Below are positions 12,301 to 58,144 of a stretch of DNA of 64,000 nucleotides, in pieces. The stretch is taken from IMG/VR virus record IMGVR_UViG_3300009514_000888, positions 64,001 through 128,000 of that record. One strand, 5' to 3'. The stretch's first letter is position 1, and every line of letters starts with the position of its first letter. The notes beneath the pieces were generated by a model. The model did no database searches. It was not told where the DNA came from and saw only the letters and a list, made by a program, of their open reading frames with translations. Source of the DNA: a virus. A program made the position numbers and the translations under genes.

Positions 12301-15300
12301 AATACATCAAAGATTGCGTTCCTGACGCTCATCAATGCCCTTCCTTTTAAGAAGAAAGCACGCGAGAAACTCGCCAGGAATGTTGCTTATTTCCAGAAAA
12401 GAGCGTCTAAGAGCGCAGAAATGCCGAATGCCCTCGATGCTCTGATCATTTCTATCGCCAATCATGCCCATCATGGCTTGAGGGCGGAGGATGTCTATGA
12501 AGCTATCGCTCGCTCCCTAAATAACAAGAAGGCGATGGCCAAGGTAGATAGCCTTGTGCAAACTAAATTGGCTTCCGTTCCTGGAATGGAAGATGAGATT
12601 CTTGATAAGTTTTCGGCTATTGATCGCGCCTTCGATATGGTTGATCGCCCCGAAGACGGTAAATGGCAGGTCAAGGCAACGGTTAAGGAGGTCTTGGCTT
12701 CCGCTAATAAGGAAGCTCGCACCAATAAGGCTAAGTTCATCCAGGCTGCCCATGAGTTCGCTTTGGACCAGATCGGACCTGAACTGGATAAGAAAGCTGG
12801 CGTTCTGCTAGAAATCGAAGTCCAGGATGGCACTGTGTCTGTTACTGAAGGCGATAGCGGAATGGGACTTGAGGGTCCAGATGAACTGCTAGAAGATTTC
12901 GACATGGAGCTACTGGGAGATGAGGGCGACCTCGGCGATGGCCTGGGCGGCGACCTCGGCGACGATGAAAAAGACATGGGCGGCATGGCTGGCACCGGCG
13001 GTATGGCCGGAACAGGCGGCGGCGCAGGTATGAGCTATATGGCGTCTCAGAATGCGCGATCTAAAATCACCAAGCAGGCTCAGCTCATGGGCGGGGAAAT
13101 GGGCGGCCAGGGCGGCGCAGCGCAGGCTCCTGGCGCGGGGGCAACTTTGCCCCAGCCCCCAATGGGAGAAGCGCCTCCAATGGAAAGCTTTACTGGTCAG
13201 GATGACGAGTTGGGCGGCGAATCGCATGACCTGTCTCCGAAGCCACCTGGCTCGATTTGCCCTGTTTGTGGCAGCGAAGATGTTGATGTTGCTGAAGGCG
13301 GAAGTCGTTGCGCCAACTGCGGGAGCGACTTCAGCGTCAAGGTTAATCTCGAAGTTAACGATTGGGCGAACCTCACCAGCACCGAAGATAATCTTGAAAG
13401 CGGCGAATTGGGCGGCGAGGATGAAGGGATGGGATTCGAGATGCCAGAAGGCGGCGGGGCAGGCGCTCCTGAAATGCCTATCGCGGCGATGACTCGCATA
13501 TCTCCCGAAGCTCTTCAAAAGGTTGCCAAGATGGCTGAGGCCATCAAGGGTACGAGCGAAGAGAGCTGGGGTAAGTTCTCAAAGCTTGTATCGGATGGAG
13601 GATACGGGTTAAGCCAGAAGATGGCAGAAAGCTATGCGACTAAGCAGGAAGTTAAGCTTGGATCGATTAGTCCATTGACCGGCAATGATAATACCGTCCA
13701 CATGGGCGGAAATGAATACGTTTGTCTTGCGACTGGCACGAAGTATACGGTTGACTTTGCAACCAATACCAAGAAGCCAGAGCATGTTTATGCCCAATGG
13801 GCTTATACGCCTAGGTATGCAAGCGCAATCTGCCCGTCTTGCAATAGGGCAAGAAAGCGTTTCGCTTCACAGCTTAAAGCATTCGGCGTCAAAGAAGACC
13901 AGTTCGATGCTATGAATCCTTATGAAAAGGCCAAGACCATCGTTGCTATGAAGAAGGCTGGCGTTCTCAAGGAAATCAAGACTGCTGATAAGATCGGAAC
14001 AGTGCTCCAGGATTACAAGAAGGCTTACGGCGTCTTTGGGAATGGCGACAAGTTCCCGATGGAATCTTGCCGACATAAGCTGGCTCGTAAGTGGGGAGAA
14101 AACTCCCTGGCTATTAGCGGACCTTGCGAAGGACAGCCTATCCATGAGTGCGTTTGTAATCAGCTAAAGAATGCAGGAATCTATTCAGATCAGGTTGCCA
14201 TCAAGCTCGCATCTGTTTGGAGCGGAGCTGATGGATTCGAAGATTGCGTTACCGACCAGGTCCGATCCAGACTCTCCCTGAGAGAGGCGGCGGTTGTTTG
14301 CTCGGCCCTGAAAACCGCGCTCGCCAATGATGAAGAATTCCTCGGCGACAGCCTTGGAGATGATATGGGCGGCGACCTCGGCGGCGATGATATGTCCGCC
14401 GTTGGCGATGAGCTCGGCGGCGATGAACTCGGCGACGACTTCGATCCGTTTGATGGCGGAATGGAAGGCGGCGACCTGGGCGGCGGGATGGTGACTTTGG
14501 AACTGTCCGAAGATGTTGCGAAGGAACTCGATGCCAACCTGGATGCCGCTCTTGGTAGCGATCCAACTGATGACCTCGGCGAAGGAGAAAGCCTGGGCGA
14601 GGCCGCTCCTGGGCTGGAAGGCGGCGAAGGGCTTGACGCTGGCGGAGACCTTGGCGTGGGCGGCAGCAATATTGATGAGCTAGATATGCTTGACGAGAAT
14701 GCCTGCAAGCCGTGTCATGATGCGAAGCCCATGATGGGCGGCAATAACATGGTGCCTACTGCTGGTAAGAAGGACAAGAATGAAGGAAAGAACGTCGATG
14801 AGTTTGTAAACAATGAACTTAAGGAGCCTGGCGATCTCAAGGGAGTTGAAACCAAGAAATCGTCTGACTCGGTCCAGCACAAGGAGGCCTCTCATATGAG
14901 AAGTAGCTTTAGCAGAACAGGACAGGTAGAAATGGACCTGCTCTCAGTAGCACGAAAACTCGGCCTCTCTAAAGAATCTGGCGAAAAAGAAATTCAACAA
15001 GAACTCGTTCAAGACTCCGGCGATATCGGTTCTTACTCTGCTGGCGACCCGCTCGGCAGCGATCTCCCGTCCGCAATGGGGCATGAAACCGAATCCGTCT
15101 CCACCGCAGAGCATCCCAGCGTTCCTCGCGGCGAAGCCCTGATGGGACACGAGTCTGATAATATTGATAAGTCCGAACCCCTGCCGCATATCCCGTCTGA
15201 TAAAGGCACGATGGGGCATGAGGACGAAGTCGGACTGTCCGGCGGCGATGTCCGCTTCACGGGCGGATATGGGGCTGGCGGAGCTGGCTCTCCTGGCGCT

Positions 15301-16125
15301 GGCCAGGCAGAAACTAATGCCGCCTCCGAAGAGCAACTTCGCAAAGAAGCAGAAGAAAAGGTATTGAATGAAGTTGCCCGCATGAGAGGACTCGGCGGAA
15401 ACACAAAGTCCAGTATCGATTCTCTGGTTGATCGTTTGCTGGCCAATGCCGAAAAACCGCTCAAGCAAGCAGACTTCGGAAAATTAAAGGCCCCTAAGCC
15501 TGTTGCAGATGATAAGGATATCCAGCCAGTCGATGGCGGCGGCAAGGGTATCGCGCATGAACCGAATTTCTCGGCGGATACGCCGACGAATACCGAGGGA
15601 GGCAAGACCACATCCCTGATGGGACATGAGCGAGAATCGCTCGGTGGCGCTCCCAAATCCCCCGCCGATCATCCTACGGTCCCTGCTGATAATCAGCTGA
15701 TGGGTCATGAGGAAGGCGGCGAGGTTGGACCTGAAAAAGGTAGAGAAAACAAGGGTACCGTCATCGCAGGAGACGATGGTGCGTCCGAGGCTCGTACGAA
15801 ACTCGCAACAACCGTTGCGGCTGAAATGATGCAGTCCGGCCTGATCAAGGTCAATGAACTGCATAGTAAAATTGTTGAACTCAGCAAGTATGAGCCTGCC
15901 CAGATTCAAGACATTCGTAAGGCAATGTTTTCAGGGCGTAAAGGACTCGACACGGTATCGGACGGGCTCGAGCGGCCTGTAATCATCAATGAAGCTAGTA
16001 ATCAGAGAGATGGTAATCATGAACTCTCTGAAAAGCTCCAATCGATGTTTACCCTTTCAAAGCGAACAGAAGAGGCTTTGAAAGACCCAGATTTCGCTCT
16101 CAAATATGCTCATAGAGTGTTTTGA
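9391..16125 (+). CDS. Prohead maturation protease fused to a very long scaffold-like region; contains one intein (2003 aa after splicing)
   Basis: N-terminal NDNGDYF/PVFTNH/STSMG|C..CSIC pattern of HK97/assemblin-fold proteases, followed by acidic low-complexity and coiled regions; directly upstream of decoration and capsid genes. Confidence 0.78.
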   Translation: MSLTKTATSNNCSIHPLNNPGWDIYKLPEMVKMASLEKSKGEDLGGFDLGAAVKDHPDNLFVKIFAIKEDEVNDNGDYFSAEELEKSAGTFVGVPVFTNHQNDDIERARGECVHAWYDKDAQGIFIIARVDKIAYPKLARGIEEQIIKSTSMGASRGHDLVTMSDYSYKRVDELKIGDQVITHTGRTESVHALCRTQEHDELYHIKWNGKKSGLALSHEHPVLILRHDDLHLAQPTGERCRKTPLEINENIKPAFVEASQVREGDYVLEIIDGPRSDIDTEIGRVALNTGAPVTLSGHDVVALTSTVMDPDAEYTGHHFAISDPLSAFSYKVKLNKRSKRLKFDSFFYDKYIAHRVESVDKIRNTEPTYYVQIGEIDDTESDHSYILNDIATHNCSVEGSVCSICHNYSTTADSYCTHIRNQKTRKTSTTCKCKYHESADLDGSKKDEPCPVCGATKSDSKQLKHSDQEVFEYNYGLKFIENSFVVNPACHTCGVACILNEPEINKKVAFLQERIQKLSHDFNKGIKLGKNAGREELDALQEAMNNIEKVSKSMLAQKDQVDLEFVSDLVKLMSDLQDTTDELMEMGYAQLPSPPDFVTGSGVEGDVTFPDPTAGIPQPAQQMGPPPATQTTQTPSATQTDIIGGLGSVTKPAMSTLVNQKKEFIRTSSNLGKKISALARRINNLARSSTVSDAHTHVWDDGSDPSSRNVLIDETYITESQGDTVLRVSAISELPTDLQKMIRSNPQEAGRRVLASYKESGYTMKDNSTEKTAAVGPFGKDSASQQEVITEKQLRNEPPDLHPRWGDTYEQITESNEQLGRSDDKMHDTTSDSPQKRLGTYETITEDQLKVVTDGHIVRANDWPEVVTEKQWTDMARLVSAELPDDWTERITEAQIRDLLDHHRFVGPYETITEDQLKNQDWGIKRWASATYTQQLAKVAVNAISDAIARFNKTPEEIDRVASYVNDNPVNTSKIAFLTLINALPFKKKAREKLARNVAYFQKRASKSAEMPNALDALIISIANHAHHGLRAEDVYEAIARSLNNKKAMAKVDSLVQTKLASVPGMEDEILDKFSAIDRAFDMVDRPEDGKWQVKATVKEVLASANKEARTNKAKFIQAAHEFALDQIGPELDKKAGVLLEIEVQDGTVSVTEGDSGMGLEGPDELLEDFDMELLGDEGDLGDGLGGDLGDDEKDMGGMAGTGGMAGTGGGAGMSYMASQNARSKITKQAQLMGGEMGGQGGAAQAPGAGATLPQPPMGEAPPMESFTGQDDELGGESHDLSPKPPGSICPVCGSEDVDVAEGGSRCANCGSDFSVKVNLEVNDWANLTSTEDNLESGELGGEDEGMGFEMPEGGGAGAPEMPIAAMTRISPEALQKVAKMAEAIKGTSEESWGKFSKLVSDGGYGLSQKMAESYATKQEVKLGSISPLTGNDNTVHMGGNEYVCLATGTKYTVDFATNTKKPEHVYAQWAYTPRYASAICPSCNRARKRFASQLKAFGVKEDQFDAMNPYEKAKTIVAMKKAGVLKEIKTADKIGTVLQDYKKAYGVFGNGDKFPMESCRHKLARKWGENSLAISGPCEGQPIHECVCNQLKNAGIYSDQVAIKLASVWSGADGFEDCVTDQVRSRLSLREAAVVCSALKTALANDEEFLGDSLGDDMGGDLGGDDMSAVGDELGGDELGDDFDPFDGGMEGGDLGGGMVTLELSEDVAKELDANLDAALGSDPTDDLGEGESLGEAAPGLEGGEGLDAGGDLGVGGSNIDELDMLDENACKPCHDAKPMMGGNNMVPTAGKKDKNEGKNVDEFVNNELKEPGDLKGVETKKSSDSVQHKEASHMRSSFSRTGQVEMDLLSVARKLGLSKESGEKEIQQELVQDSGDIGSYSAGDPLGSDLPSAMGHETESVSTAEHPSVPRGEALMGHESDNIDKSEPLPHIPSDKGTMGHEDEVGLSGGDVRFTGGYGAGGAGSPGAGQAETNAASEEQLRKEAEEKVLNEVARMRGLGGNTKSSIDSLVDRLLANAEKPLKQADFGKLKAPKPVADDKDIQPVDGGGKGIAHEPNFSADTPTNTEGGKTTSLMGHERESLGGAPKSPADHPTVPADNQLMGHEEGGEVGPEKGRENKGTVIAGDDGASEARTKLATTVAAEMMQSGLIKVNELHSKIVELSKYEPAQIQDIRKAMFSGRKGLDTVSDGLERPVIINEASNQRDGNHELSEKLQSMFTLSKRTEEALKDPDFALKYAHRVF
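9850..10572 (+). mobile_element. Ala1 intein in the prohead protease (241 aa, no intact endonuclease)
   Basis: ASRGHDLVTMSDYSYKRVDELKIGDQVITHTG aligns residue-for-residue to block A with Ala in place of Cys1; SHEH block B; THN|C terminus. Confidence 0.85.
11752..12141 (+). repeat. Six (I/V)TExxx peptide repeats in the scaffold region
   Basis: VITEKQL, YEQITESNEQL, YETITEDQL, VVTEKQW, RITEAQI, YETITEDQL. Confidence 0.8.
15076..15711 (+). repeat. Five MGHE peptide repeats (plus one IAHE) in the scaffold region
   Basis: MGHE codons start at 15076, 15142, 15211, 15619 and 15700. Confidence 0.85.
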
Positions 16126-20356: not shown

Positions 20357-21583
20357 TTGCTAAAGAGTAGTTGTGATTTAGTCGATGGTAGTGTTATGTC
20401 TAAGGCAGGTAAGATTAAGGTTCTTTTTCCCCATCTTTATCAGGAGCTAGATCGTTTTTCTAATAAGGGTATAGATTTGGATGGATTAACATCTGGCTCC
20501 AATGCATACGTTTGGTGGAGATGTGTCTATGGTCACTCTTGGAAAGCCCAGGTCTATAATCGTGTTAAGGGGACAGGATGCCCTTACTGCTCTGGAAATG
20601 CCATATCAGACAATAGTCTACAAAAGAAGCAACCTGACTTGGCTTCTCAATTCTGTAAGATCAAGAACGATCTGTCTCCAGACGAGATTTCTTTCTGTAG
20701 TAATAAGAAGGTTTGGTGGAAGTGTTCTAAGGCGGATGATCACGTTTGGAAGGCAACGCCCAATGATCGAAACAAAGCATCTGGGTGTCCTTTTTGTTCT
20801 GGTCGCCGAGCATCGAAAGATAATAATTTGCTAGATAAATACCCTGAAATTGCTAATCAATGGCATCCTACAAAAAATGGCGCATTAACACCCTCAGATT
20901 TGACGCCAGCTAGCGGGAAGAAAGTGTGGTGGAAGTGTAAGGTAGCTAGCGACCATGAGTGGCTTGCCTCTCCTAACACAAGAATCAATATGACAAACAG
21001 TTTAAGCTGTCCATTTTGCACAGGTCGCAAGGTGTGTAATTCGAATTGCCTGTCTACCACTCACGAGTTTTTACTAGATAGTTGGGATTTTAAGAAGAAT
21101 GAGATATCTCCTACAGAAATAACTTATTCTTCTCATAAAAAGATTTGGTGGATATGCGACAAGAAGCATAGTTGGTGTGCAAATGTATATAGTAGATCAG
21201 CAGGGAAGGGGTGCCAGCAATGCAATTTATCCAAAGGCGAGGCAAAGGTTGCTAAAGTTTTGTCTGACATGGGGATGTACTTCCAAAAAGAGTATAGATT
21301 TAAGAAATCCAAGATTCCCAGGAGAAAGTTTGATTTTGCGGTGTTTAATCAATCTATCCATTTGATAGAGTATCATGGGATTCAGCATTATGAGCCTGTT
21401 TCTTTTGGCTCTAAGACAGTTAAGGGGCAACAAACTCTAAAAAGAATTCAGCATAGGGATCAACTGAAGAGGGAATGGGTATTGGATAATGGTTATCCTC
21501 TTTTAGAGATACCCTATTGGGATTTTGATCAAATAGAACACTTAATAAGAGATTTTCTTTATGAGCGAAAGAAAGATTCATAA
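20357..21583 (+). CDS. Repeated zinc-ribbon protein with C-terminal PD-(D/E)XK-like endonuclease (free-standing HEG-like)
   Basis: Four to five WWKC..H.W.A....R...GCP.C repeats; FDFAV...LIEYHGIQHY terminus; start codon uncertain. Confidence 0.75.
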   Translation: MLKSSCDLVDGSVMSKAGKIKVLFPHLYQELDRFSNKGIDLDGLTSGSNAYVWWRCVYGHSWKAQVYNRVKGTGCPYCSGNAISDNSLQKKQPDLASQFCKIKNDLSPDEISFCSNKKVWWKCSKADDHVWKATPNDRNKASGCPFCSGRRASKDNNLLDKYPEIANQWHPTKNGALTPSDLTPASGKKVWWKCKVASDHEWLASPNTRINMTNSLSCPFCTGRKVCNSNCLSTTHEFLLDSWDFKKNEISPTEITYSSHKKIWWICDKKHSWCANVYSRSAGKGCQQCNLSKGEAKVAKVLSDMGMYFQKEYRFKKSKIPRRKFDFAVFNQSIHLIEYHGIQHYEPVSFGSKTVKGQQTLKRIQHRDQLKREWVLDNGYPLLEIPYWDFDQIEHLIRDFLYERKKDS

Positions 21584-23255
21584 CTACGAGTCTGTCATCT
21601 TGGTAGAAAAAACAATCCAAGATGAAGGATATAACCCGAACAAACTGGGAAGAACATCTAGGAAGTTCATATGGGCATCTTGCCGTGTATGCGGGGAATC
21701 TCATCGCATTCGTAAGGGATTCTATAATAAGGCAGGATCGGCATGTCATAAAGAGTGTAGGATGCAGGAACAGTCCCAATTCGGCTCTCCTTTTTCTGAT
21801 CCAAAGGTGAAAAAGAAAGCTCAGGAGAATAGGACCAGGAACATATCTCAAAAAGAATTGAACAGACGCATATCTATAGGCCGGAAAAAGGCTCAGTCTA
21901 AGATAGAAGAAACCAACATGCAGAAGTATGGTGTCAGAAATACATTCCAATCTGGAGAAATTAAGGAGAAGATAAAAAAGACTAATTTGGATAGGTATGG
22001 GGTGGCTCATCCTATGCAGTCAGAGGATATTGCGTCCAGGGCGAAGGGAACAGTTAGAGAAAAGTATGGGGTTGACAATGTAATGCAATCCGAGCCGATA
22101 CGGTCTAAGGCAATTGAAACCAATAAGCAGAGATATGGGGTTGCAAATCCTATGCAAGATAAGGATATCTCAGAGAAATCTAGAGCTGGATTTCAAACTG
22201 CTGTAGACGAAGACCTTAATGACAATTATCGACTTATCAATACTTTGAGAGGTGATGATTTTTGGAACAAAATGGCAGAAGAAGAGTTAACCCTTAAAGA
22301 GTTATGTGATTTTTTTGATATTAATTATCAAAGCGCAACTTATAGGCTTGTTCAAGATGAATTCAGAGACAAGTATCATAAAACATATCATTTTCCAAAG
22401 CACCAGGAGCAAATGAGCATATGTAGAATGATTGAGTCTTGCGGGGTAAAGGTGGATGCTAATACCAGGCAAGTTATACCTCCGCTGGAGATAGATATAT
22501 ATTGTCCTGAATCAAAGCTTGCTATTGAATTCAATGGAAGCTATTGGCATTCTGAGGCTTTTTTAGACAGTAGTCAATCAAGGCATAAGCATATAGAGAA
22601 AACCAGAATGTGCAGGGAGAAGGGGATAGAGCTGATTCATGTATTTGAGCATACTTATAGAGAGCGTAAAGATCAAATATTAGGATTCATTCAATCCGCC
22701 CTTGGATCAAATACGGTTAGAATTCATGCTAGAAAATGTAATATTACTCACAATGATTCTTCATGGTTTATGAACAAACATCATGTTCAGGGATCGACCA
22801 AGAGCATTAAGTATTTTAATCTTGAATATGATGGAGAGATAGTTGGGTCTATGACTGCGGGCAAGCATCATGAAAAGGGGGGAGACAGGATGGCATGCGT
22901 ATTAAATAGACTAGCTTTCAAGAGAGGTGTTACTATTCAGGGAGGATCAGGTAGGTTATTCAAATACTTTAGGCAATGGGCCAAAGGAGAGGGATATGAT
23001 CAGATCATTAGTTGGTCAGATTCATCCTTAACCAGTGGCAAGGTATACAATACATTGGGATTTAATATGGAGGTTGAGCATGCCCCTGGATATTTCTATT
23101 TTGACATGAAAAATGGCCGATATTTGAGTCGTCAGTCTCAAAGAAAAACCAATAAGTTGAGGCCAGATGGCGTGACTATTAGAGAATGGAATAGAGCGAG
23201 AGGATTATATCCAATATGGGATTGCGGAAAGAAAAAGTGGACATATCATCTTTAG
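21561..23255 (+). CDS. Hef-like free-standing endonuclease with KYGV repeats
   Basis: Repeated KYGV/RYGV units; EIDIYCPESKLAIEFNGSYWHS nuclease motif; C-terminal ARKC...WDCG domain. Confidence 0.7.
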   Translation: MSERKIHNYESVILVEKTIQDEGYNPNKLGRTSRKFIWASCRVCGESHRIRKGFYNKAGSACHKECRMQEQSQFGSPFSDPKVKKKAQENRTRNISQKELNRRISIGRKKAQSKIEETNMQKYGVRNTFQSGEIKEKIKKTNLDRYGVAHPMQSEDIASRAKGTVREKYGVDNVMQSEPIRSKAIETNKQRYGVANPMQDKDISEKSRAGFQTAVDEDLNDNYRLINTLRGDDFWNKMAEEELTLKELCDFFDINYQSATYRLVQDEFRDKYHKTYHFPKHQEQMSICRMIESCGVKVDANTRQVIPPLEIDIYCPESKLAIEFNGSYWHSEAFLDSSQSRHKHIEKTRMCREKGIELIHVFEHTYRERKDQILGFIQSALGSNTVRIHARKCNITHNDSSWFMNKHHVQGSTKSIKYFNLEYDGEIVGSMTAGKHHEKGGDRMACVLNRLAFKRGVTIQGGSGRLFKYFRQWAKGEGYDQIISWSDSSLTSGKVYNTLGFNMEVEHAPGYFYFDMKNGRYLSRQSQRKTNKLRPDGVTIREWNRARGLYPIWDCGKKKWTYHL

Positions 23256-34619: not shown

Positions 34620-35408
34620 TTGGGCGGATATATAGGGCAATGGGGTATTAAATCGATTACATTAGGGAGCAGGAAAATGATTATAGTTAGTTTTACGTCT
34701 ACATCTTACCGCTTGCCCCAAATGGAGCCTGCTCTAAAGTCTATTTGTGAGGGCAGCCTACACCCGAACCATATCTTTTTGCATCTGTCTACCGCTGCTT
34801 TTGGGCATGACGAGGGCGTATCGGAAGTTCCCGAGTTTGTCCTCAAGTATCCTGTCAAAATTTGTTGGGGAGAGAACCATGGCCCGTATCGCAAGCTACT
34901 GCCTACGTTGCGCAAGTTCTGGAACAAGCCAGACTACATGGTGGTTACGTGTGATGACGACTGGATATATCCTTCGTTCTGGCTTGAGAGGATGGTTGAA
35001 GCCGCAGAGTTACATACTGATAAATGCATCTGTTATGCGGCTAGGAGGATTGCGGTCGGCGGTGACGGCAAAATCAGACCTTACGTTGAGTGGGAAAACT
35101 TGCGATCATCGTATGGGCTGACTCAGGCGGACAGGGTTTTGGCTTTGGGCGGGCATGGCGTGTTGTATCGTCCCAGGTTTTTTAATTCTGAAATCTTTGA
35201 TGTTCAGAAAGCTTTTGAGGTTGCTCAGTTTTGCGATGATTTCTGGTTTTCTGGACAGTTATGCAAAAGGGGAGTTTCGGTACGTGTGCTAGAGAGCTGC
35301 TGGGAGGATTTCGATCATTTGGAGCTGGACTTTCCGCTTTGGGATGATAATAAGGATCGTAATAATCAGTACGCGATCAATGCTAAGCGGCTATTCGGGT
35401 TCTGGTGA
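34620..35408 (+). CDS. GT-A fold glycosyltransferase (likely start 34677)
   Basis: GPYRKLLP, VTCDDD (DxD-like), DDFWFS. Confidence 0.7.
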   Translation: MGGYIGQWGIKSITLGSRKMIIVSFTSTSYRLPQMEPALKSICEGSLHPNHIFLHLSTAAFGHDEGVSEVPEFVLKYPVKICWGENHGPYRKLLPTLRKFWNKPDYMVVTCDDDWIYPSFWLERMVEAAELHTDKCICYAARRIAVGGDGKIRPYVEWENLRSSYGLTQADRVLALGGHGVLYRPRFFNSEIFDVQKAFEVAQFCDDFWFSGQLCKRGVSVRVLESCWEDFDHLELDFPLWDDNKDRNNQYAINAKRLFGFW

Positions 35409-35654
35409 TTGGTTCACGATCTTGGATTCTAGGACTTCCGCTATTTCTTTGATTGATGACTGTTCTAGTTGATCCAGCTCTTCTTCTAGGCTGATTTTGC
35501 GGTCCAGGATATCTAGAATGGTAAAGTGGCATCTACCGTATTCCTGGGAGCCGACTTCATGTTGCCCCTGCTCCCACTTGAGGCGGTGAAATTCTTGTTG
35601 CGTTTCGCTTAACGCTTGAAGCACTTTTTGAATAGGGCTAGATTCCTTATCCAC
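35391..35654 (-). CDS. Small coiled-coil hypothetical protein, divergent from guaC
   Basis: GGAGG RBS 5 nt before GTG at 35654; part of track ORF 35391-35684. Confidence 0.5.
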   Translation of the reverse strand: MDKESSPIQKVLQALSETQQEFHRLKWEQGQHEVGSQEYGRCHFTILDILDRKISLEEELDQLEQSSIKEIAEVLESKIVNQSPEPE

Positions 35655-35753
35655 TCTTGCCTCCGTACAAATTGTCTTCAGCAAAAAGGATTATCTATCC
35701 TTCATATTTCGTTGTGCCGATACAACTGTGTACTAAAGAAGGAGACATTAAGG

Positions 35754-36686
35754 ATGAGAATAGAGCAGGAAGTCAAACTTGATTTCAAAGACGTTCTGAT
35801 CCGCCCCAAAAGATCGACGATGGATACACGCAAGCAGGTCAGTTTGGATCGGGAATTTCAGACATTGCATTCCGGTCTTGTGGTCAAGGGTGTCCCTGTC
35901 ATTGCATCCAATATTGACACCATCGGCACATTTGCGATGGCTAAGTCATTGGCTGAATTTGGGATGTTTACTGCACTGCATAAGCATTATGCTGTTGACG
36001 ATGTGGCCAGGTTTATGGTCAATAATATTGATCTTTGGGATCGTGTTTTCTACACCTTGGGTATGACACAGAAAGATTCCGAGAAGCTAGAGGCGGTCCA
36101 GAATCGCATGGTGGATATCGCCTTGCATGAGGACGTGAAGATATTTCAGGAGGACGACTTCCTCGACAATATGCGCAAGATGAGCAGTGGATTCCCCAGG
36201 CTCTTGTGTCTTGATGTCGCCAATGGGTATATCAAACAATTCCATGAGTTTGTTAAAACGATTCGCGATGCCGCTCCGCATGCAATTATCATGGCCGGGA
36301 ATGTTGCGACACCAGAGATGGTGCAGCAGCTTTTGGAATGCGGAGCAGATATCGTCAAGATAGGCACGGGTAATGGCTGTTTTGTTCCCGGAACTAAAGT
36401 CAAACTAAAAGACGGGTGCAAAAATATAGAAGATATCGAAGTTGGAGATGAAGTGCTTACTCATCGAGGGGAATATAAGAAAGTCATAGCAACAACCAGT
36501 AGAGAAGAAAATAAAGAAGTGTACAGTATTAATGATATTCAATGTACTGGTAATCATGAGTTCTATGTGCTTCATAAAAAGTATAGGAATATAGTGAATG
36601 ATGAAAACATGGATGAGTTTGCTGAATGGATTTCAGCGGAGAATCTTACCAAAGATTATGTTCTTCTAAAAATTAAGAAGGATTGA
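35754..36686 (+). CDS. guaC: GMP reductase N-terminal half fused to N-intein
   Basis: LDFKDVLIRPKRST, ALHKHY, CLDVANGY, MAGNVAT, GADIVKIG, then CFVPG intein start and a stop codon. Confidence 0.9.
   Translation: MRIEQEVKLDFKDVLIRPKRSTMDTRKQVSLDREFQTLHSGLVVKGVPVIASNIDTIGTFAMAKSLAEFGMFTALHKHYAVDDVARFMVNNIDLWDRVFYTLGMTQKDSEKLEAVQNRMVDIALHEDVKIFQEDDFLDNMRKMSSGFPRLLCLDVANGYIKQFHEFVKTIRDAAPHAIIMAGNVATPEMVQQLLECGADIVKIGTGNGCFVPGTKVKLKDGCKNIEDIEVGDEVLTHRGEYKKVIATTSREENKEVYSINDIQCTGNHEFYVLHKKYRNIVNDENMDEFAEWISAENLTKDYVLLKIKKD
36378..36683 (+). mobile_element. Split intein N-fragment (102 aa)
   Basis: CFVPGTKV block A, CTGNHEFY block B, ends at stop with no block F/G. Confidence 0.9.
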
Positions 36687-36737
36687 GTTAGGAATATCCT
36701 AATTACTAAGTGTGGACTTGGCACTGGTAATTAGGAG
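36687..36737 (+). promoter_or_regulatory. Competing hairpins covering the endonuclease RBS
   Basis: TCCTAATTAC (36697-36706) pairs with GTAATTAGGA (36727-36736) over AGGAG; the alternative TTAGGA-ATA-TCCTAA (36687-36701) excludes it. Confidence 0.55.
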
Positions 36738-36745
36738 ACATAGAA

Positions 36746-37657
36746 GTGATTAATAAGATACATGTGGTTAATTTTGGAAATCAAGAAATATTAGGATGTC
36801 GAAAAGAAGGCAGAATGAAGTTTTGGTTATTGGAAAACGGAATTGAGATTAATAGTAATGATTTGTATAAGAAGCCAGTTAATATTGAATGTCATCAATG
36901 TCACAAAAGTAAGCGTGTTAAGTTTTATGGGGGAAATAATGGTCTTATTAAAAGGCAATACATATGCCAATCATGTAGCAAGCAGGGAGATAGGAATGCC
37001 TTTTTTGGGAAGAAGCATTCTGATGAAACAAAGAAGAGTATATCAGAGTCTAATACAGGGAATCTAGTGGGTGATAAAAATCCTATGTGGGGAAAAAGCG
37101 TTTGGGACACGTACTCTCCAAAGCAATTTGAATCTATTCGAAAGAAGATAAGTAAAAAATCGCAGGGTAGTGGTAATGCGTTTTGGGGAAGAACCCATAC
37201 AGATGAATTTAAGAAAAAGAAAGCAAAGCAAGCAAGACAATGGATAATAGATCATCCAGAGCATTTGAGGAAAATGGTGGCCCATTCTTTGGAGGCTCAA
37301 AAAAGGTTTAGGAAAACGGGGATAGAGGCAGTGACAGAGGTAGAATTGCAAAGAAGAAAGATACCTCATAAATACAATAAGATATTGCACAGGAAATATC
37401 AGTATGATTTTTTGATAGGAGATAAATTTTTGTTAGAAGTTCATGGTGATTATTGGCATGCTAACCCAGAGATATATGGACCAGGTAAGCGATCTCTAAA
37501 TGATAGACAGATATTCAAAGTTGAGCAAGATAAGTCGAAAAAAGTGTTTGCTGAAAAATATGGTTACAAGATTTTTTACATATGGGAAACGGAAATAAAT
37601 AATTTGGATTTTACTGTTATTTCTCAAATAGAAAGGATATTAAATGGCGTTATCTAA
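36746..37657 (+). CDS. Free-standing homing endonuclease (NUMOD3 repeats + Vsr-like domain) between the intein halves
   Basis: [13 protein letters not shown] and [11 protein letters not shown]; YDFLI...[12 protein letters not shown]; AT-rich relative to the flanks. Confidence 0.85.
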
Positions 37658-37772
37658 ATACGAATTTGTTGAAATAGAATATATTCAGGTTTCTCCATAT
37701 TCAGGGAAAGTTTATGATTTTGAAGTGGAAGAAGATCATTCGTACAATGTGGGTGGTATAGCTGTGCATAAT
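37644..37772 (+). mobile_element. Split intein C-fragment (43 aa)
   Basis: Own ATG; blocks F and G ending HN|S. Confidence 0.9.
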
Positions 37773-38372
37773 TCAGTTTGCACGACTCGCGTCAAGACTG
37801 CTGTCGGATACCCGTCCTTGTCTTCGATAGCCGAGTGCGCTGATGCGGCTCATGGTTATCGTCGAGGGCTTGTATGCGCCGATGGCGGATGCGTTGATTC
37901 CGGGGATGTTTGCCGAGCATTCGGCGCTGGTGCTGATTTTGTGATGCTGGGAGGCATGTTCGCTGGAACAGATGAGTGCGACGGGGAATGGGAATACAAC
38001 TATGAAGAAAGCATGGCTTCTACAACGTTCAATGAATCAATGCACATGGCGCATGGCTTCGGTTGGGTGGGATCAGCTGTTTCTGCCACTGGAGATGCGA
38101 GACATAAGAAGTTCCTGAAGTTCTATGGCATGTCTTCCAAGGAGGCTATGCAGAAGCACGATGGAGGCGTAGCATCTCACAGAACCGAGGAGGGGAAATG
38201 CGTTAAAATTCCATATAAGGGCCCGTCTGGTGAGGTTGCCCAGGATATTATGGGAGGATTGCGATCATGTTGCACATACGTTGGGGCAACGTGTCTCAAA
38301 GAACTGCCCAAGTGTTGCACGTTTGTTCGCGTGGCCAATGGCAGAACGCATAATACAGTTTTTGGAGGATGA
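37644..38372 (+). CDS. guaC: C-intein fused to GMP reductase C-terminal half
   Basis: [21 protein letters not shown]|[41 protein letters not shown]. Confidence 0.9.
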
Positions 38373-38813
38373 ATGGCGGATGCTCAAAAAGTTCGATTAG
38401 CAACTGCTTCGGATTTGACGCAGGTTGTGGAGTTATTGGGACAATTGAGTCCCCTGAATGGTGCCTGGCCCAGGCATCGCTTGGAGCTGTTGTTGGATGA
38501 AATTTTGCATGATGACAAGCATCATCTTTTTGTTTATGATGTCGGCGGCAAGATCGTGGGAGAGGGCATGGTTATGATACGCTTAAACTTGTCGCATGGC
38601 GGCAGGGCGGTAGCATATGCCGAGAATATTGTGGTTGACCAGTCTTATCGTGGGCAGGGCATCGGCGCGCAATTAATGGCCAAGATTGCGGAAACTGCCA
38701 AGAAGCATCATTGCTATAAGTTGCTTTTGGATTGTTCAGAACAGAATGTGCCATTCTACCAGAAGTTGGGATTTGAAATCACATTCGAGAAAAATATGCG
38801 CATGGACTTTTAG
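38373..38813 (+). CDS. GNAT acetyltransferase (glucosamine-6-phosphate N-acetyltransferase-like)
   Basis: ENIVVDQSYRGQGIG, CYKLLLDC, FYQKLGF. Confidence 0.85.
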   Translation: MADAQKVRLATASDLTQVVELLGQLSPLNGAWPRHRLELLLDEILHDDKHHLFVYDVGGKIVGEGMVMIRLNLSHGGRAVAYAENIVVDQSYRGQGIGAQLMAKIAETAKKHHCYKLLLDCSEQNVPFYQKLGFEITFEKNMRMDF

Positions 38814-38815
38814 CG

Positions 38816-38841
38816 AGGATTCTGGAGCCAAAATGAGTATT
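38816..38841 (+). promoter_or_regulatory. Putative promoter AGGA-N17-GTATT
   Basis: Intergenic; same spacing as 32799 and 44984. Confidence 0.4.
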
Positions 38842-38848
38842 CTCCATT

Positions 38849-39526
38849 ATGGGGGATATTCGAAAAGTCCAGCGGAGAATTGCGAGGTTTATATGCGGGA
38901 AGGTTGATGCGGCAACGGCAGTGATGCAAAAGGACATTGCCGCTGGCCGACCTCCTCGTAAGTTTATGTCGGCTATCAAACGAGTTTGGAAGACTCGCAA
39001 AGATGGTCATTACAGTATTCCTGTGAGCAAGGTGCCCTATCCATATTCCCAATTGAAGGTTGCTTTCATCAAGTCTGCCACATCGAGTTTGGACGGCTGG
39101 ATGATGAAGATTAGCTCTTCGAGAATGCGTAAAGCTAATACGAAAGAGGAGGCAGAAAGAGCCAGGGTTATCATCAATGGGGTAGTTTACCATGAAGTAG
39201 AGCATATCTTTTTTAGCGGAACGCATGTGGATCGCAAGAAAAAGGATAAGATGAATGCTTATATTGAGTATCTGATTCATCCTGGAGAGATTAGAGCGTA
39301 TGCCAAGATGTACGCCTACATCTTCAGCCAAGCATTTCCGGGAGAGCCATTCGACTATCGCAAGATGTCTAGACTGTCTAGAGATTGGCAGGTTTACAGC
39401 GCCGTTTACTATTTCGAAGTGTTTAACGATGCTCATTTTGTGAAAAAATATCCGAGGGTTCGCGGGATTCAAAAGAAGGCGCGGAAATTAACGAAGAAAC
39501 TTCTAGAGAAGGAGTTTCGCTCTTGA
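38849..39526 (+). CDS. Hypothetical protein with HExxH zincin-like motif
   Basis: VYHEVEH and downstream GEIRAYA. Confidence 0.5.
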   Translation: MGDIRKVQRRIARFICGKVDAATAVMQKDIAAGRPPRKFMSAIKRVWKTRKDGHYSIPVSKVPYPYSQLKVAFIKSATSSLDGWMMKISSSRMRKANTKEEAERARVIINGVVYHEVEHIFFSGTHVDRKKKDKMNAYIEYLIHPGEIRAYAKMYAYIFSQAFPGEPFDYRKMSRLSRDWQVYSAVYYFEVFNDAHFVKKYPRVRGIQKKARKLTKKLLEKEFRS

Positions 39527-40431
39527 AGAACTTGCATCTAGACTTAGTCAGGGTTACAGAGGGCGCGGCTATCGCGGCCTCCAAATGGGTTGGGTCTGGG
39601 GAGAAGGAATTGGCAGATAAGTTTGCGACAGAGGCTATGCGCAAGCGATTGAACAGAATGGACTTTTCTGCGATAGTATCTATAGGAGAAGGGGTAAAGG
39701 ACAATTCTTTTGGTATATTTAGAGGAGAGAAACTAGGAATTCTAAGAGATAAAGAAGAGGATTTTTGTTTAGCAATAGACCCTATCGAAGGGACTACGCC
39801 AACCAGCAAGGGTGGATATGAGGCTATGAGCGTTATTGCGCTCGGTAAGAAAAATGCCTTCTACCAGACAGATCAGTTTTACATGCACAAGCTCGCTGCC
39901 GGAGAAGAATTAGCCCAGGCTGCTAGACTGTCATTATCCGATCCTGTCCATACAACGATAGAAAAGGCGAAGATTGCTTTGCAAAAGCAGGTTACGGTTT
40001 GCGTTTTAGATCGGGACAGACATGATGAACTGGTTGCTACTTTGAGAGAGATGGGCTGTCGCGTATTCTTGATCTCTGATTGCGATGTTAGCGGGTGCAT
40101 TTCGACCTGCATGCCAGAGAGCGGCATTGATCTTTACATGGGGATTGGCGGCGCTCCTGAGGCTGTTATTACCGCAGCGGCGCTCAAGTGCATGGGAGGG
40201 TTCTTCCAGGCACAGGCTTGCGATAGAAGCGGGCAGGCAGGGGCTATCGCAGATATTCTGGGTATTGAACGATTGGTCAGTGGTCCTACTATATTTGCAG
40301 CCACCGGCATTACGGATGGCAAACTGCTGAAGGGTGTCAGATATACTTCCAAGGGTCCGGTGACGCATTCTCTGACTATGCGATCTGAAAGCGGGACAAT
40401 ACGCAAGATTGAGACAATTCATGGCAACTAA
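39523..40431 (+). CDS. glpX: Class II fructose-1,6-bisphosphatase
   Basis: VRVTEGAA, IGEG, AIDPIEGT, LDRDRH, DCDV, GIGGAPE, FAATGITDG. Confidence 0.92.
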   Translation: MKNLHLDLVRVTEGAAIAASKWVGSGEKELADKFATEAMRKRLNRMDFSAIVSIGEGVKDNSFGIFRGEKLGILRDKEEDFCLAIDPIEGTTPTSKGGYEAMSVIALGKKNAFYQTDQFYMHKLAAGEELAQAARLSLSDPVHTTIEKAKIALQKQVTVCVLDRDRHDELVATLREMGCRVFLISDCDVSGCISTCMPESGIDLYMGIGGAPEAVITAAALKCMGGFFQAQACDRSGQAGAIADILGIERLVSGPTIFAATGITDGKLLKGVRYTSKGPVTHSLTMRSESGTIRKIETIHGN

Positions 40432-45423: not shown

Positions 45424-45843
45424 ATGGCTGAATTGCTCCCTGAATCCGGAGAAGAGATCAATCCTCGTAAGGGCGAGGATAATTACCAGATTCTCTTCAA
45501 CAATGCCAAGCTGACCTACGATAAGTTTCTGGATATCATCTCTCGCGAGAGTGTACGTTCCAGCGACCATTCTGCTCAGTTGAACAACATTGCTGTTCAG
45601 CACTTGCAGAATGCCGTAGAGAATGCTAACCTGATTTCCAAGAACAGCATTGTTAACCTTGACCTGTGCGACAAGCACGCCATGAACAACTTCGCTCTGA
45701 GCGTTAATAAGCTCTGGAATCTTGAGGTTCCCGAGGCTGCAAGCCAGGCTGAAGTTCTGAAGGCTGTTGGCATGGATCAGGCCACTATCGCTGCTATTCA
45801 GGCTGCCGTCGTTGCGGCTGTCCAGAATGCAGTCGCTAAGTAA
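45424..45843 (+). CDS. Ala/Asn/Gln-rich helical protein, paralog A
   Basis: AGGAGG RBS; PESGEEINPRKGEDNYQ, LQNAVENAN and WNLEV shared with paralog B. Confidence 0.8.
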   Translation: MAELLPESGEEINPRKGEDNYQILFNNAKLTYDKFLDIISRESVRSSDHSAQLNNIAVQHLQNAVENANLISKNSIVNLDLCDKHAMNNFALSVNKLWNLEVPEAASQAEVLKAVGMDQATIAAIQAAVVAAVQNAVAK

Positions 45844-45854
45844 TTGGTAATCCA

Positions 45855-45882
45855 CGTTATAGCCGGGAAACCGGCTATAACG
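45855..45882 (+). promoter_or_regulatory. Perfect 12-bp hairpin with GAAA loop between the paralogs (attenuator or stabiliser)
   Basis: CGTTATAGCCGG-GAAA-CCGGCTATAACG followed by GTTTTGTT. Confidence 0.7.
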
Positions 45883-45928
45883 GTTTTGTTAACGTTAACG
45901 TCCACTTGATATCAAGGAGAACGAAGAG

Positions 45929-46399
45929 ATGGCTGAAACGATTGAAAATGGCGAGACTCTGAATCCTGAGTCCGGAGAGGAAGTAAATCCCCGTAAGGGA
46001 GAGGATAACTACCAGAACTTGTTCAACAACTCTAAGCTCACGTATGACAAATTCCTCGACCTGATTACGCGCGATAGCCATCGCAGTAGCGATCATGGCG
46101 CGCAGATGAATCACATTGCGATGCAGGCGCTTCAAAATGCTGTTGAAAATGCAAATATGTTAGCGAAGAACAATCTTACCAATGCTGACCTGCTGAATAA
46201 GCACAGTATGAATAATTTTGCGGTAGCCACCGATAGGATGTGGAACCTAGAAGTGACGGAGGCTGCTTCTATGTCCAGTCTGCTTAAGGCGTCTGGCATG
46301 AACCAGGCCACCATTGCGGCTATACAGTCCCTAATTGTCAAGACTGTTCAAGACACGTTGGCAAATATGGCTGCCGGTGACGAAGACGGCGGCGAGTGA
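45929..46399 (+). CDS. Ala/Asn/Gln-rich helical protein, paralog B
   Basis: AAGGAG RBS; collinear similarity to paralog A. Confidence 0.8.
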   Translation: MAETIENGETLNPESGEEVNPRKGEDNYQNLFNNSKLTYDKFLDLITRDSHRSSDHGAQMNHIAMQALQNAVENANMLAKNNLTNADLLNKHSMNNFAVATDRMWNLEVTEAASMSSLLKASGMNQATIAAIQSLIVKTVQDTLANMAAGDEDGGE

Positions 46400-55565: not shown

Positions 55566-56847
55566 ATACAATTGGGGTATTCTAACAGATACAGATGTTG
55601 AACTTATCATGGAATCTCTGTCTATGCTCGTCGAAAGATTTGGACGGGAAGAAACCCTGAAAGTCATGGAGGTTGGCGTCTGTCGCGGCAAGACCAGCCG
55701 AGGTATCAAGCATGAACTCGACAGACTGAGGGCAGTATATGAATATTGGGCCGTGGATTCAGGCGCAGGTATGGCAGGCAATGTGCTGCCGCCATTTGAG
55801 GGATGTAGGCTAGTGATTGGGAACTCGGAGGAATCATATATGGAGTTCCCTGATGATCTGCATTGGGTTTTTATTGATGGATGTCATTGTATTAATCATG
55901 TTATGTTGGATATACTGCATTATGCTCCCAAAGTTAGAGATGGCGGATTGATTGTTTTGCATGACACTAGCCCGCTTGCACAGGCTTGTAATCGACATCC
56001 GCCAGACTATCAAAAGCATGGACCCAGACATGCCGATTTTGGGACGGCTATTTTAGCGGCATTTGACAAATTGGACGTAGAGCATCGCCGAGATATGCAA
56101 TTGGTTCGATCTGCTCAAGACGAAGATGCATGTTGGGGAGGGGTATCGGTATTTAAGAAGGTCAAGAACCCAGAGGGAGCTCCGGTATATAGGGGCAAGG
56201 AGGGGCAGGACCGTTGGGCGATGGAGGTGCTGGGATATAAGCGCAATGGATACTTTGTGGATATTGGAGCACACAATGGGTACAACGATAGCAACTCCTA
56301 TGTCATGGAAAAATACTTCGACTGGGAAGGCATTTGCGTAGAGCCTAATACATATACCGAGGGCGAATTGCGCAAATATCGAAATTGCCATATCGAAACA
56401 TCATGTATTTCTGATGTCAATGGAGAAGTCGATTTTGTGCAGAGAGGGAGAAGAAAACAAGTCTCAGGTATTTATCATCCGGACGCCGACGAACATGTAC
56501 TTAGTCCGGTTGACCAATATAAACATCCACTCATCAAAAAGCCGTCGCTTACGCTAATCGCCCTATTGAAGAAATATCAGGCTCCCAGAATTATTGATTA
56601 TCTCAGCGTTGATGTGGAGGGCGCAGAACACCTGATACTCCAGGGGTTCGACTTCTCCAGATACAAGTTCTTGACTTTAACGATTGAACACAATTATTTT
56701 GAGGGCAATGGCTTTCCAAAGAAGAACCTCCAAAGAAGGCAGAAGGTGCAAGATACCCTTTTGTCCAATGGGTATCATCTGAATAAAACAGTAGTTGCCG
56801 ATGATTGGTTCTCGGTTTGGGAAGGACAGTCAACTACCCTCAGCTAA
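55552..56847 (+). CDS. Two-domain methyltransferase (Methyltransf_24-like + FkbM-like); stop codon supplied by the IsrB element
   Basis: MEVGV, FIDGCH, LHDT; FVDIGAHNG, GICVEPN, YLSVDVEGAE. Confidence 0.85.
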   Translation: MAHNKYNWGILTDTDVELIMESLSMLVERFGREETLKVMEVGVCRGKTSRGIKHELDRLRAVYEYWAVDSGAGMAGNVLPPFEGCRLVIGNSEESYMEFPDDLHWVFIDGCHCINHVMLDILHYAPKVRDGGLIVLHDTSPLAQACNRHPPDYQKHGPRHADFGTAILAAFDKLDVEHRRDMQLVRSAQDEDACWGGVSVFKKVKNPEGAPVYRGKEGQDRWAMEVLGYKRNGYFVDIGAHNGYNDSNSYVMEKYFDWEGICVEPNTYTEGELRKYRNCHIETSCISDVNGEVDFVQRGRRKQVSGIYHPDADEHVLSPVDQYKHPLIKKPSLTLIALLKKYQAPRIIDYLSVDVEGAEHLILQGFDFSRYKFLTLTIEHNYFEGNGFPKKNLQRRQKVQDTLLSNGYHLNKTVVADDWFSVWEGQSTTLS

Positions 56848-57127
56848 AGCACGAGGGCTTGTCAGAGAGAGCTGACATCTTGAAAGATTCGTAGAATCTT
56901 TCAAGAGTTGACTAGACTAAGCAGAAAGGAGTGTTCTCCTAATATGCTACGTTAAGAGAGCTACAAGTACCAAGGGATGCCGCCCTAGTCCCCTGCTCTA
57001 CGCTAGACCTCTTTAATAGCACGTTTCCTGCAAAAGCAGGAAACTAAGCTCTCTTAACATTGTCGAAGGGCAATATACACAGGTTCCCAGTCCTGGCTTA
57101 CCGCATTAAAACTGGAACAAAAACACT
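56829..57127 (+). ncRNA. Putative omegaRNA scaffold
   Basis: ~300-nt ORF-free stretch with multiple hairpins between the element end and the PLMP start. Confidence 0.7.
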
Positions 57128-58144
57128 ATGTTCATGCCAGTAGTTCATTCTGATCAGCAGCCCTTGATGCCAACAACGTCGAGCAGGGCGAGGCGTTGGA
57201 TGGCTCAAGGCAGGGCTACTGGATTCTACAAGAAAGGAGTATTCTGTGTTCGACTCAACGTAACTCCATCAGACACCAAAACCCAGACAATCGCTGTAGG
57301 CATCGATCCAGGATCAAAGCGAGAAGCTTACACAGTTAAATCGCAATCTCATACATACCTCAATCTGCTGTCTGACGCAGTAGATTGGGTGAAGGAAGCA
57401 GTAGAACAACGCCGTAACATGCGACGAGCAAGACGCTCCAGGAAAACCAGATATCGAATTGCCAGATTCAATAACAGAAAAAAGAGCAAGATTGCGCCTT
57501 CCACGAAATCCAGGTGGCACCTGAAACTTAGAATCTGTGATTTATTGTCACAGATATTCCCTGTATCACAGTTCGTTGTTGAAGACATCAAAGCTAAAAC
57601 AACTGGTAAAAAGCGCTGGGACACCAGTTTCTCCCCTCTTGAAGTAGGCAAGCAGTGGTTTTATGAGCAGCTGAGTAGTTTTGCTCATGTTGTGACCAGA
57701 CAGGGATATGAGACAAAAGCGTTGAGAGACGAACTGGGACTCAAGAAGTCGAGTTCTAAGTTAGCTGACAAGTTTGAGTGTCACAATGTAGACAGTTGGG
57801 TTCTTGCGAATGCCGCCGTTGGCGGTCATTCGCATCCGGACAACAAGAGGATACATAGGCTACATCTGATCAGGTTGCACAGGAGACAGTTGCATGCGTT
57901 TCAGCATGGTAAGGGCGGCGTTCGCCGCCCTTACGGAGGGACGCGTAGTTTGGGATTTAAGCGAGGAAGCTTCGTACAGCACAAGAGGAGAGGAGTATGC
58001 TTTGTAGGCGGGACGAGCAAGGACAGGGTCAGTTTGCATTGTATGCAAACTGGCAAGCGTTTAACGCAATCAGCTGAAGTTGTTGATTGCAGATTTTTGA
58101 GTTATTCTAGTTGGAGAGTAGGCATCGTTTCCTCCCCACACTAA
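57128..58144 (+). CDS. isrB: IsrB RNA-guided nickase
   Basis: PLMP, GIDPG (RuvC-I), Arg-rich bridge helix, VVEDI (RuvC-II), HNVD (RuvC-III); 338 aa, no HNH. Confidence 0.85.
   Translation: MFMPVVHSDQQPLMPTTSSRARRWMAQGRATGFYKKGVFCVRLNVTPSDTKTQTIAVGIDPGSKREAYTVKSQSHTYLNLLSDAVDWVKEAVEQRRNMRRARRSRKTRYRIARFNNRKKSKIAPSTKSRWHLKLRICDLLSQIFPVSQFVVEDIKAKTTGKKRWDTSFSPLEVGKQWFYEQLSSFAHVVTRQGYETKALRDELGLKKSSSKLADKFECHNVDSWVLANAAVGGHSHPDNKRIHRLHLIRLHRRQLHAFQHGKGGVRRPYGGTRSLGFKRGSFVQHKRRGVCFVGGTSKDRVSLHCMQTGKRLTQSAEVVDCRFLSYSSWRVGIVSSPH

Follow-up and report, generated by a model that had tools for sequence, protein, structure and literature searches.

A fractured guaC gene in a large phage, with a predicted split intein of the IMPDH-1 family and a Vsr-like endonuclease gene between its halves

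Fractured genes, in which two parts of an enzyme gene each carry one half of a split intein and an endonuclease open reading frame (ORF) lies between them, are a known kind of locus. In 15 of 16 such loci a hairpin lies upstream of the endonuclease initiation codon, and overlaps with the downstream ORF range from 6 to 69 bp (Dassa 2009, PMC2677866). The IMPDH-1 split intein, found in an IMP dehydrogenase (IMPDH)-like host, trans-splices in vivo and in vitro when its halves are made separately, and it is used as an orthogonal tool in protein engineering (PMC11168065; PMC7090010). The prototype of the EDxHD family of homing endonucleases is I-Bth0305I (PMC3239194; PDB 3r3p). Our study concerns positions 35754-38372 of a 64-kb window (the whole stretch of DNA that was analysed) from the 186-kb IMG/VR virus record IMGVR_UViG_3300009514_000888. 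We conclude that this locus is very probably a fractured phage guaC, the gene for GMP reductase (GMPR), whose two products are joined by a split intein and whose halves are separated by an endonuclease gene.

Three ORFs, all on the + strand, occupy the locus. ORF1 starts at an ATG 9 nt after a Shine-Dalgarno sequence, AGGAG (35740-35744, +), read from the sequence. It encodes a 208-aa GuaC N-extein ending in GTGNG (35754-36377, +) and then a 102-aa N-terminal intein half, IntN (36378-36683, +; TGA stop at 36684-36686), which begins with CFVPGT, carries Cys1 and the block B residues T57-x-x-H60, and matches Hint_2 and Hom_end_hint. The free-standing endonuclease ORF (303 aa; 36746-37657, +) is in a different frame from ORF1 and has a NUMOD3 match. 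Its start is a GTG, 8 nt behind the AGGAG at 36733-36737, and this choice is backed by a homologue from a related locus that aligns from the first residue of the endonuclease. ORF3 has its own ribosome-binding site (AAAGGA) and an ATG at 37644, inside the 3′ end of the endonuclease ORF, with an overlap of 14 nt. It begins with the 43-aa C-terminal intein half, IntC (37644-37772, +), which matches Pfam Intein_splicing and ends in VHN, and continues into a 199-aa GuaC C-extein from SVCTTR (37773-38372 with its stop, coding to 38369, +), in which Ser+1, the catalytic Cys+3, Thr+5 and the Glu of EEGK can be recognized. Both exteins match the Pfam IMPDH/GMPR family, with E-values of 1.7e-21 and 6.6e-32, and as profile assignments the family matches of these ORFs far exceed chance. 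The enzyme gene is thus found in two adjacent ORFs on the same strand, the first closing with IntN and a stop codon and the second opening with its own start and IntC. A first-pass annotation had proposed this fractured layout from the letters of the window; its coordinates, part lengths and junction agree with our reading of the ORFs, and the Pfam matches support it.

The host enzyme is assigned to the type-1 GMPRs. Both exteins score best on the NCBIfam model for this group, NF003470 (201.6 bits for the N-extein and 221.5 bits for the C-extein), far above the IMPDH models. The halves were scored separately, and their simple sum of 423 bits may be set beside a curated cut-off of 397 that applies to whole proteins. 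The closest intein-free homologues, two phage proteins (P0050 and P0052) that are 51-52% identical, reach 472-475 bits and lie above this cut-off. In contrast, the host of IMPDH-1-type alleles scores best on the IMPDH model TIGR01302 (166 + 129 bits, against 102 + 108 on NF003470) and is short, with the CBS part missing. The earlier suggestion that the host is GuaC rather than IMPDH is therefore well founded. Among solved structures, the C-extein is most closely related to human GMPR1 and GMPR2 (E 2.4e-52). The active-site loop of the 345-aa GMPRs reads G183-S184-V185-C186-T187-T188; by this numbering the intein separates Gly183 from Ser184, which places Cys186 at +3 and Thr188 at +5. Alignment with the 345-aa and human enzymes thus confirms that the catalytic Cys is at +3 of the GTGNG/SVCTT junction, as had been read at first. 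The EEGK Glu of the C-extein aligns with the SEGK Glu of human GMPR1. Cys186, Thr188 and Glu289 are required for the activity of E. coli GMPR (PMC2525682), and equivalents of all three are present in the GuaC of the window. A related phage contig (L088) carries an uninterrupted 419-aa guaC at 5001-6260, with the loop GIGPGSSCTT continuous exactly at the junction, and has a UvrD helicase, a 225-aa ORF, a GT4 gene and their neighbours in common with the window. From its sequence and synteny, this guaC is a natural empty-site allele.

Comparison with IMPDH-1 indicates that the two intein halves form an allele of the same family. The reference for IntC was the published IMPDH-1 sequence (supplement of PMC7090010), to which the IntC of the window is identical at 20 of 39 positions (51%; E 8e-15). 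The exact IMPDH-1 protein was absent from the database proteins retrieved, and the reference for IntN was an IMG/VR allele (L053) that differs from the published sequence at 5 of 101 positions (95% identical). Against this allele the IntN of the window has 44 of 101 identical residues (44%; E 1e-30); a hand count against published IMPDH-1 itself gives 46 of 101. A second IMG/VR locus, L051, is likewise an IMPDH-1 allele, and both have 5 differences in 101 IntN positions and the same GGG/SIC junction as IMPDH-1. A search of PDB sequences with IntN alone returned only weak matches, to the gp41-1 intein (E 0.0034). The motifs expected of an active intein are conserved across relatives: Cys1 and the block B Thr and His are invariant in 28 N-halves, and V-H-N|S-x-C is found in all of 49 distinct C-halves. 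Since the insertion site and split point are shared and both halves are significantly similar, we assign the window pair, on sequence grounds, to the IMPDH-1 family as an allele at the same site and split point, in a host of a different subfamily. The resemblance of both halves to IMPDH-1, noted in the first-pass annotation, is borne out by these identities.

The sequence directly shows how the locus is built, which families its proteins belong to and which residues they conserve; from this we infer splicing, enzyme activity and homing in the following manner. Each half of guaC would be translated separately from its own ribosome-binding site. IntN at the end of ORF1 and IntC at the start of ORF3 would then associate into a class-1 HINT fold, in which Cys1 would initiate an N-S acyl shift, Ser+1 would accept the N-extein and Asn43 of IntC would cyclise. 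Ligation of the exteins would yield a 407-aa type-1 GMPR with the active-site loop G-N-G-S-V-C-T-T. The prediction that the products of ORF1 and ORF3 splice in trans draws on the conserved blocks A, B, F and G and on the activity of the allelic IMPDH-1. As for its origin, an EDxHD (Vsr-like) endonuclease gene probably invaded the intein at the loop where endonucleases usually insert and thereby split it, and the gene would spread through cutting of endonuclease-free alleles. Translation of the endonuclease gene is probably restrained by a hairpin that covers its ribosome-binding site, and the 3′ end of the gene would provide the start region of the IntC ORF.

The endonuclease has an N-terminal beta domain, then a CxxC...CxxC motif, NUMOD3 repeats and a C-terminal nuclease domain of EDxHD/Vsr-like type. 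Its family is large, with 4353 representative clusters at E ≤ 0.001 in an exhaustive search. Among 46 aligned members, the four Cys of the CxxC...CxxC motif as well as D221, E231, H238 and D262 are invariant or nearly so. The family profile matches the DNA-binding domain of I-TevI (E 3.5e-6), I-Bth0305I (E 0.0029) and E. coli Vsr (E 0.012). Matches of the profile to RecA were disregarded as low-score repeats without a significant stretch. An AlphaFold (AF2) model of the protein has a predicted local distance difference test (pLDDT) score of 94.8, and Foldseek placed the catalytic domain of I-Bth0305I (3r3p) at the top of its matches (template modelling (TM) score 0.76 by target, probability 1.00), followed by Vsr (1cw0). 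The modelled Vsr-like fold, with its conserved Glu, Asp, His and Asp, places the endonuclease in the EDxHD/Vsr-like family of I-Bth0305I; D221, E231, H238 and D262 presumably form the named EDxHD motif. The Pfam NUMOD3 match, the conserved residues and the structural matches to I-Bth0305I and Vsr thus agree with the description of the protein as NUMOD3/Vsr-like in the first-pass annotation.

The hairpin ahead of the endonuclease gene (36697-36736, +; RNAfold -19.5 kcal/mol) is predicted to pair four of the five bases of its AGGAG (36733-36737). It has a z-score of -3.25, and none of 200 shuffled sequences folded as well. In its predicted structure and position, the hairpin in the 5′ untranslated region of the endonuclease ORF, together with the 14-nt overlap between that ORF and ORF3, matches the anatomy published for fractured genes. 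The target of the endonuclease had been taken at first to be the intact guaC site. By analogy with described fractured genes (Dassa 2009, PMC2677866), this is better corrected: an endonuclease-free intein allele is the likely target. A second copy of the endonuclease was not found in the 186-kb record.

Two other explanations of the same anatomy were weighed. The middle ORF might lie in a self-splicing RNA intron, whose removal would leave a cis-acting mini-intein in a single guaC mRNA. ORF1 and ORF3 are indeed in the same frame, the interval 36684-37643 is 960 nt and so a multiple of three, and EDxHD endonucleases are found in group I introns too (PMC2677866, PMC3239194). However, no Rfam family matched within 35000-39000 at E ≤ 1 with permissive filters, and no group I intron covariance model matched in that interval (E ≤ 1) or in the whole window (gathering threshold), a negative that comes without a positive control as no intron of any kind was reported in the window at the gathering threshold. 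With Rfam negative at the locus and across the window, the group I intron was rejected. Moreover, the stop of ORF1 falls exactly at the canonical split point, and ORF3 is equipped with an ATG and a ribosome-binding site of its own. Related split loci with a homologous endonuclease are about evenly divided between those whose halves share a frame and those whose halves do not, and an IMPDH-1 allele of the same layout functions as two separate polypeptides. We therefore regard removal of the endonuclease by RNA splicing as highly improbable.

The locus could also be a decaying remnant, in which insertion of the endonuclease gene killed guaC and left the halves inactive, or the halves might associate without being ligated. 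Several observations count against an active, efficiently spliced enzyme. The catalytic loop, GTGNG, departs from the GIGPG usual in type-1 GMPRs, and the exteins have two insertions relative to the 345-aa enzymes, of ~25 aa in the N-half and 39 aa in the C-half, so that the activity of spliced GuaC is uncertain; both insertions are also present in the intein-free homologues P0050 and P0052. The speed and efficiency of IMPDH-1 cannot be transferred to a pair with an identity of just 44-51%. A second PF00478 gene was not found in the 186-kb record, yet CheckV estimates the genome to be 39% complete and an intact second guaC could lie elsewhere in it; if guaC is dispensable, decay would need no such copy. 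Endonuclease genes do decay among the relatives, four of which (L016-L019) keep a 3′ tail only. Nevertheless, none of the three ORFs is disrupted, each has a good ribosome-binding site, and the catalytic residues of intein, GMPR and endonuclease are all retained, which makes a dead locus unlikely. The split layout also persists over dozens of loci that have diverged to 40-70% identity, and this divergence with intact ORFs and motifs points to purifying selection on both halves. Decay or association without ligation is thus improbable, and a fractured guaC rejoined by protein trans-splicing is the reading that we adopt.

A survey of relatives places the locus within a widespread group. Protein searches returned dozens of clusters with N-halves of ~280 aa that carry a window-type IntN, some named GMP reductase by the Joint Genome Institute (JGI). 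Of 100 related loci from an IMG/VR scan, 80 were retained; with two others, from a metagenome and an NCBI assembly (L005 and L007), the classified set came to 82. The gene is split and contains a homologous NUMOD3/Vsr-like endonuclease in 36 of the 82, 12 of them in GuaC-type hosts by a crude classification (best BLAST score to two references). A further 14 loci are split without an endonuclease and 6 have contiguous mini-inteins. L016-L019 are deletion derivatives of the L013-L015 type, their DNA being ~90-92% identical around the fractured gene. A deletion of ~785 bp takes the endonuclease gene and leaves its last ~27 codons between IntN and IntC, where they still provide the start region of the IntC ORF. 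Judged from these sequences, L016-L019 represent a point in the homing cycle at which the endonuclease gene is lost in nature. The polymorphism of the endonuclease among the relatives, present in some and absent in others, and these deletion remnants are indirect signs that the endonuclease of the window would home.

The same survey bears on the history of the intein. The IntN sequences nearest to that of the window come from a GuaC-type host (P0002, 71% identical) and from an IMPDH-like host (P0121, 68% identical), and an approximately unbiased (AU) test rejects a single clade of GuaC-hosted inteins (p 1.3e-4). Together these results suggest that the intein moved between the GuaC-type and IMPDH-like subfamilies. 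The IntN tree, based on 100 alignment columns, has poor resolution: of the 17 host switches counted by parsimony, just one is forced by supported branches, and the host classes are the crude ones described above. With the whole locus as query, a DNA search of phages in GenBank gave no match, and a limited literature search turned up no open paper in which an intein in GMP reductase is named. The locus had initially been presented as a new split pair at the equivalent site in GuaC. Site and host stand, while its novelty and interest were overstated, as alleles of this intein that sit in GuaC hosts with the same endonuclease occur commonly in public protein sets and viral contigs.

The residues around the split point differ from those of IMPDH-1 in charge. 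In the window the C-terminal 14 residues of IntN have a net basic character (...LLKIKKD) and the first 14 of IntC a net acidic one; IMPDH-1 alleles show the reverse polarity, with an acidic IntN tail (...LLIELE) and a basic IntC head (MKFKLK...). Over 45 distinct pairs the charges of the two segments anticorrelate (raw Spearman rho -0.81). Since the tree permits just 1-3 independent switches of polarity, this pattern describes two classes and is not a test of co-evolution, and the idea that co-evolution of the split-site charges is demonstrated was rejected. Designed charge swaps make split inteins orthogonal. By analogy, and given the reversed polarity, the window pair may not cross-react with IMPDH-1. 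The wider proposal that the IMPDH-1 family comprises two natural polarity classes, that the window pair is opposite and orthogonal to IMPDH-1, and that the intein has crossed between IMPDH-like and GuaC-type hosts is a tentative one, which we hold to be somewhat doubtful. If it is true, the window pair would be a ready-made partner, orthogonal to IMPDH-1 and yet kin of this fast intein.

Nearly all long ORFs are on the + strand, and the portal gene of the window identifies the source, by homology, as a large phage. The portal ORF (1330 aa; 4046-8038, +; phrog_16240, E 2e-39) contains an in-frame mini-intein at about residues 514-668 (Intein_splicing, E 8.5e-18) and a DUF559/Vsr-superfamily nuclease-like domain at residues 1207-1275. 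A 2244-aa ORF without a Pfam family (9391-16125, +) has a weak Hint-like match to the IntN of the window at 9892-10008 (E 1.3e-4). Outside the window, another intein-like match lies at 45786-46121 of the genome, in a 1157-aa frame. At 56829-57078 (+) there is a full-length match to HEARO RNA (RF02033, 111 bits, E 4e-22), directly followed by the gene for a 338-aa RRXRR-domain protein (57128-58144, +); these two look like an IscB/OMEGA-type RNA-guided nuclease module in a phage. An ORF with four DUF4379 treble-clef zinc-finger repeats (20357-21583, +) precedes a DUF7487 ORF (21561-23255, +), and both may be further mobile nuclease genes; DUF7487 genes flank the fractured gene in L007 as well. 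Directly downstream of the fractured gene are a GNAT acetyltransferase (38373-38813, +) and a complete class II fructose-1,6-bisphosphatase, glpX (39523-40431, +; E 6e-98).

Split inteins of the IMPDH-1 family serve protein ligation, and orthogonal pairs are in demand. The locus adds one natural pair, from a type-1 GMPR. In it and its relatives several phases of the homing cycle can be seen: guaC without an intein, inteins in one piece, inteins split around an endonuclease gene, and remnants of such a gene. It leaves the current understanding of fractured genes unchanged.

Compared with described systems, the locus is closest to that of IMPDH-1. In both, the intein interrupts the catalytic loop of a PF00478 enzyme at G|S-x-C and is split at the same point (IntN of 101-102 aa and IntC of 40-43 aa), the chemistry is that of Cys1 and Ser+1, and the halves flank the gene of a free-standing NUMOD3 and Vsr-like endonuclease, which is preceded by a hairpin and overlaps the downstream ORF. 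They differ in sequence, the endonucleases more (29% identical) than the intein halves, and in host, which is a type-1 GuaC with a GNG/SVC junction in the window and a CBS-less IMPDH-like enzyme with GGG/SIC in IMPDH-1 alleles. Like I-Bth0305I, the endonuclease has a Vsr-like C-terminal nuclease domain, conserved acidic and His residues and a modular N-terminal DNA-binding region. The nuclease domains are ~23% identical and cleavage by the window protein is predicted only; unlike I-Bth0305I, which resides in a group I intron of a phage recA, it is free-standing within a split intein. The enzyme belongs to the same family as E. coli GuaC and human GMPR1 and GMPR2 and has their catalytic equivalents, but it differs from them in being encoded in two pieces, in its loop and in its insertions. 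With the layout and the IMPDH-1 intein family both already known, the locus is a further example of a kind that is common and well described.

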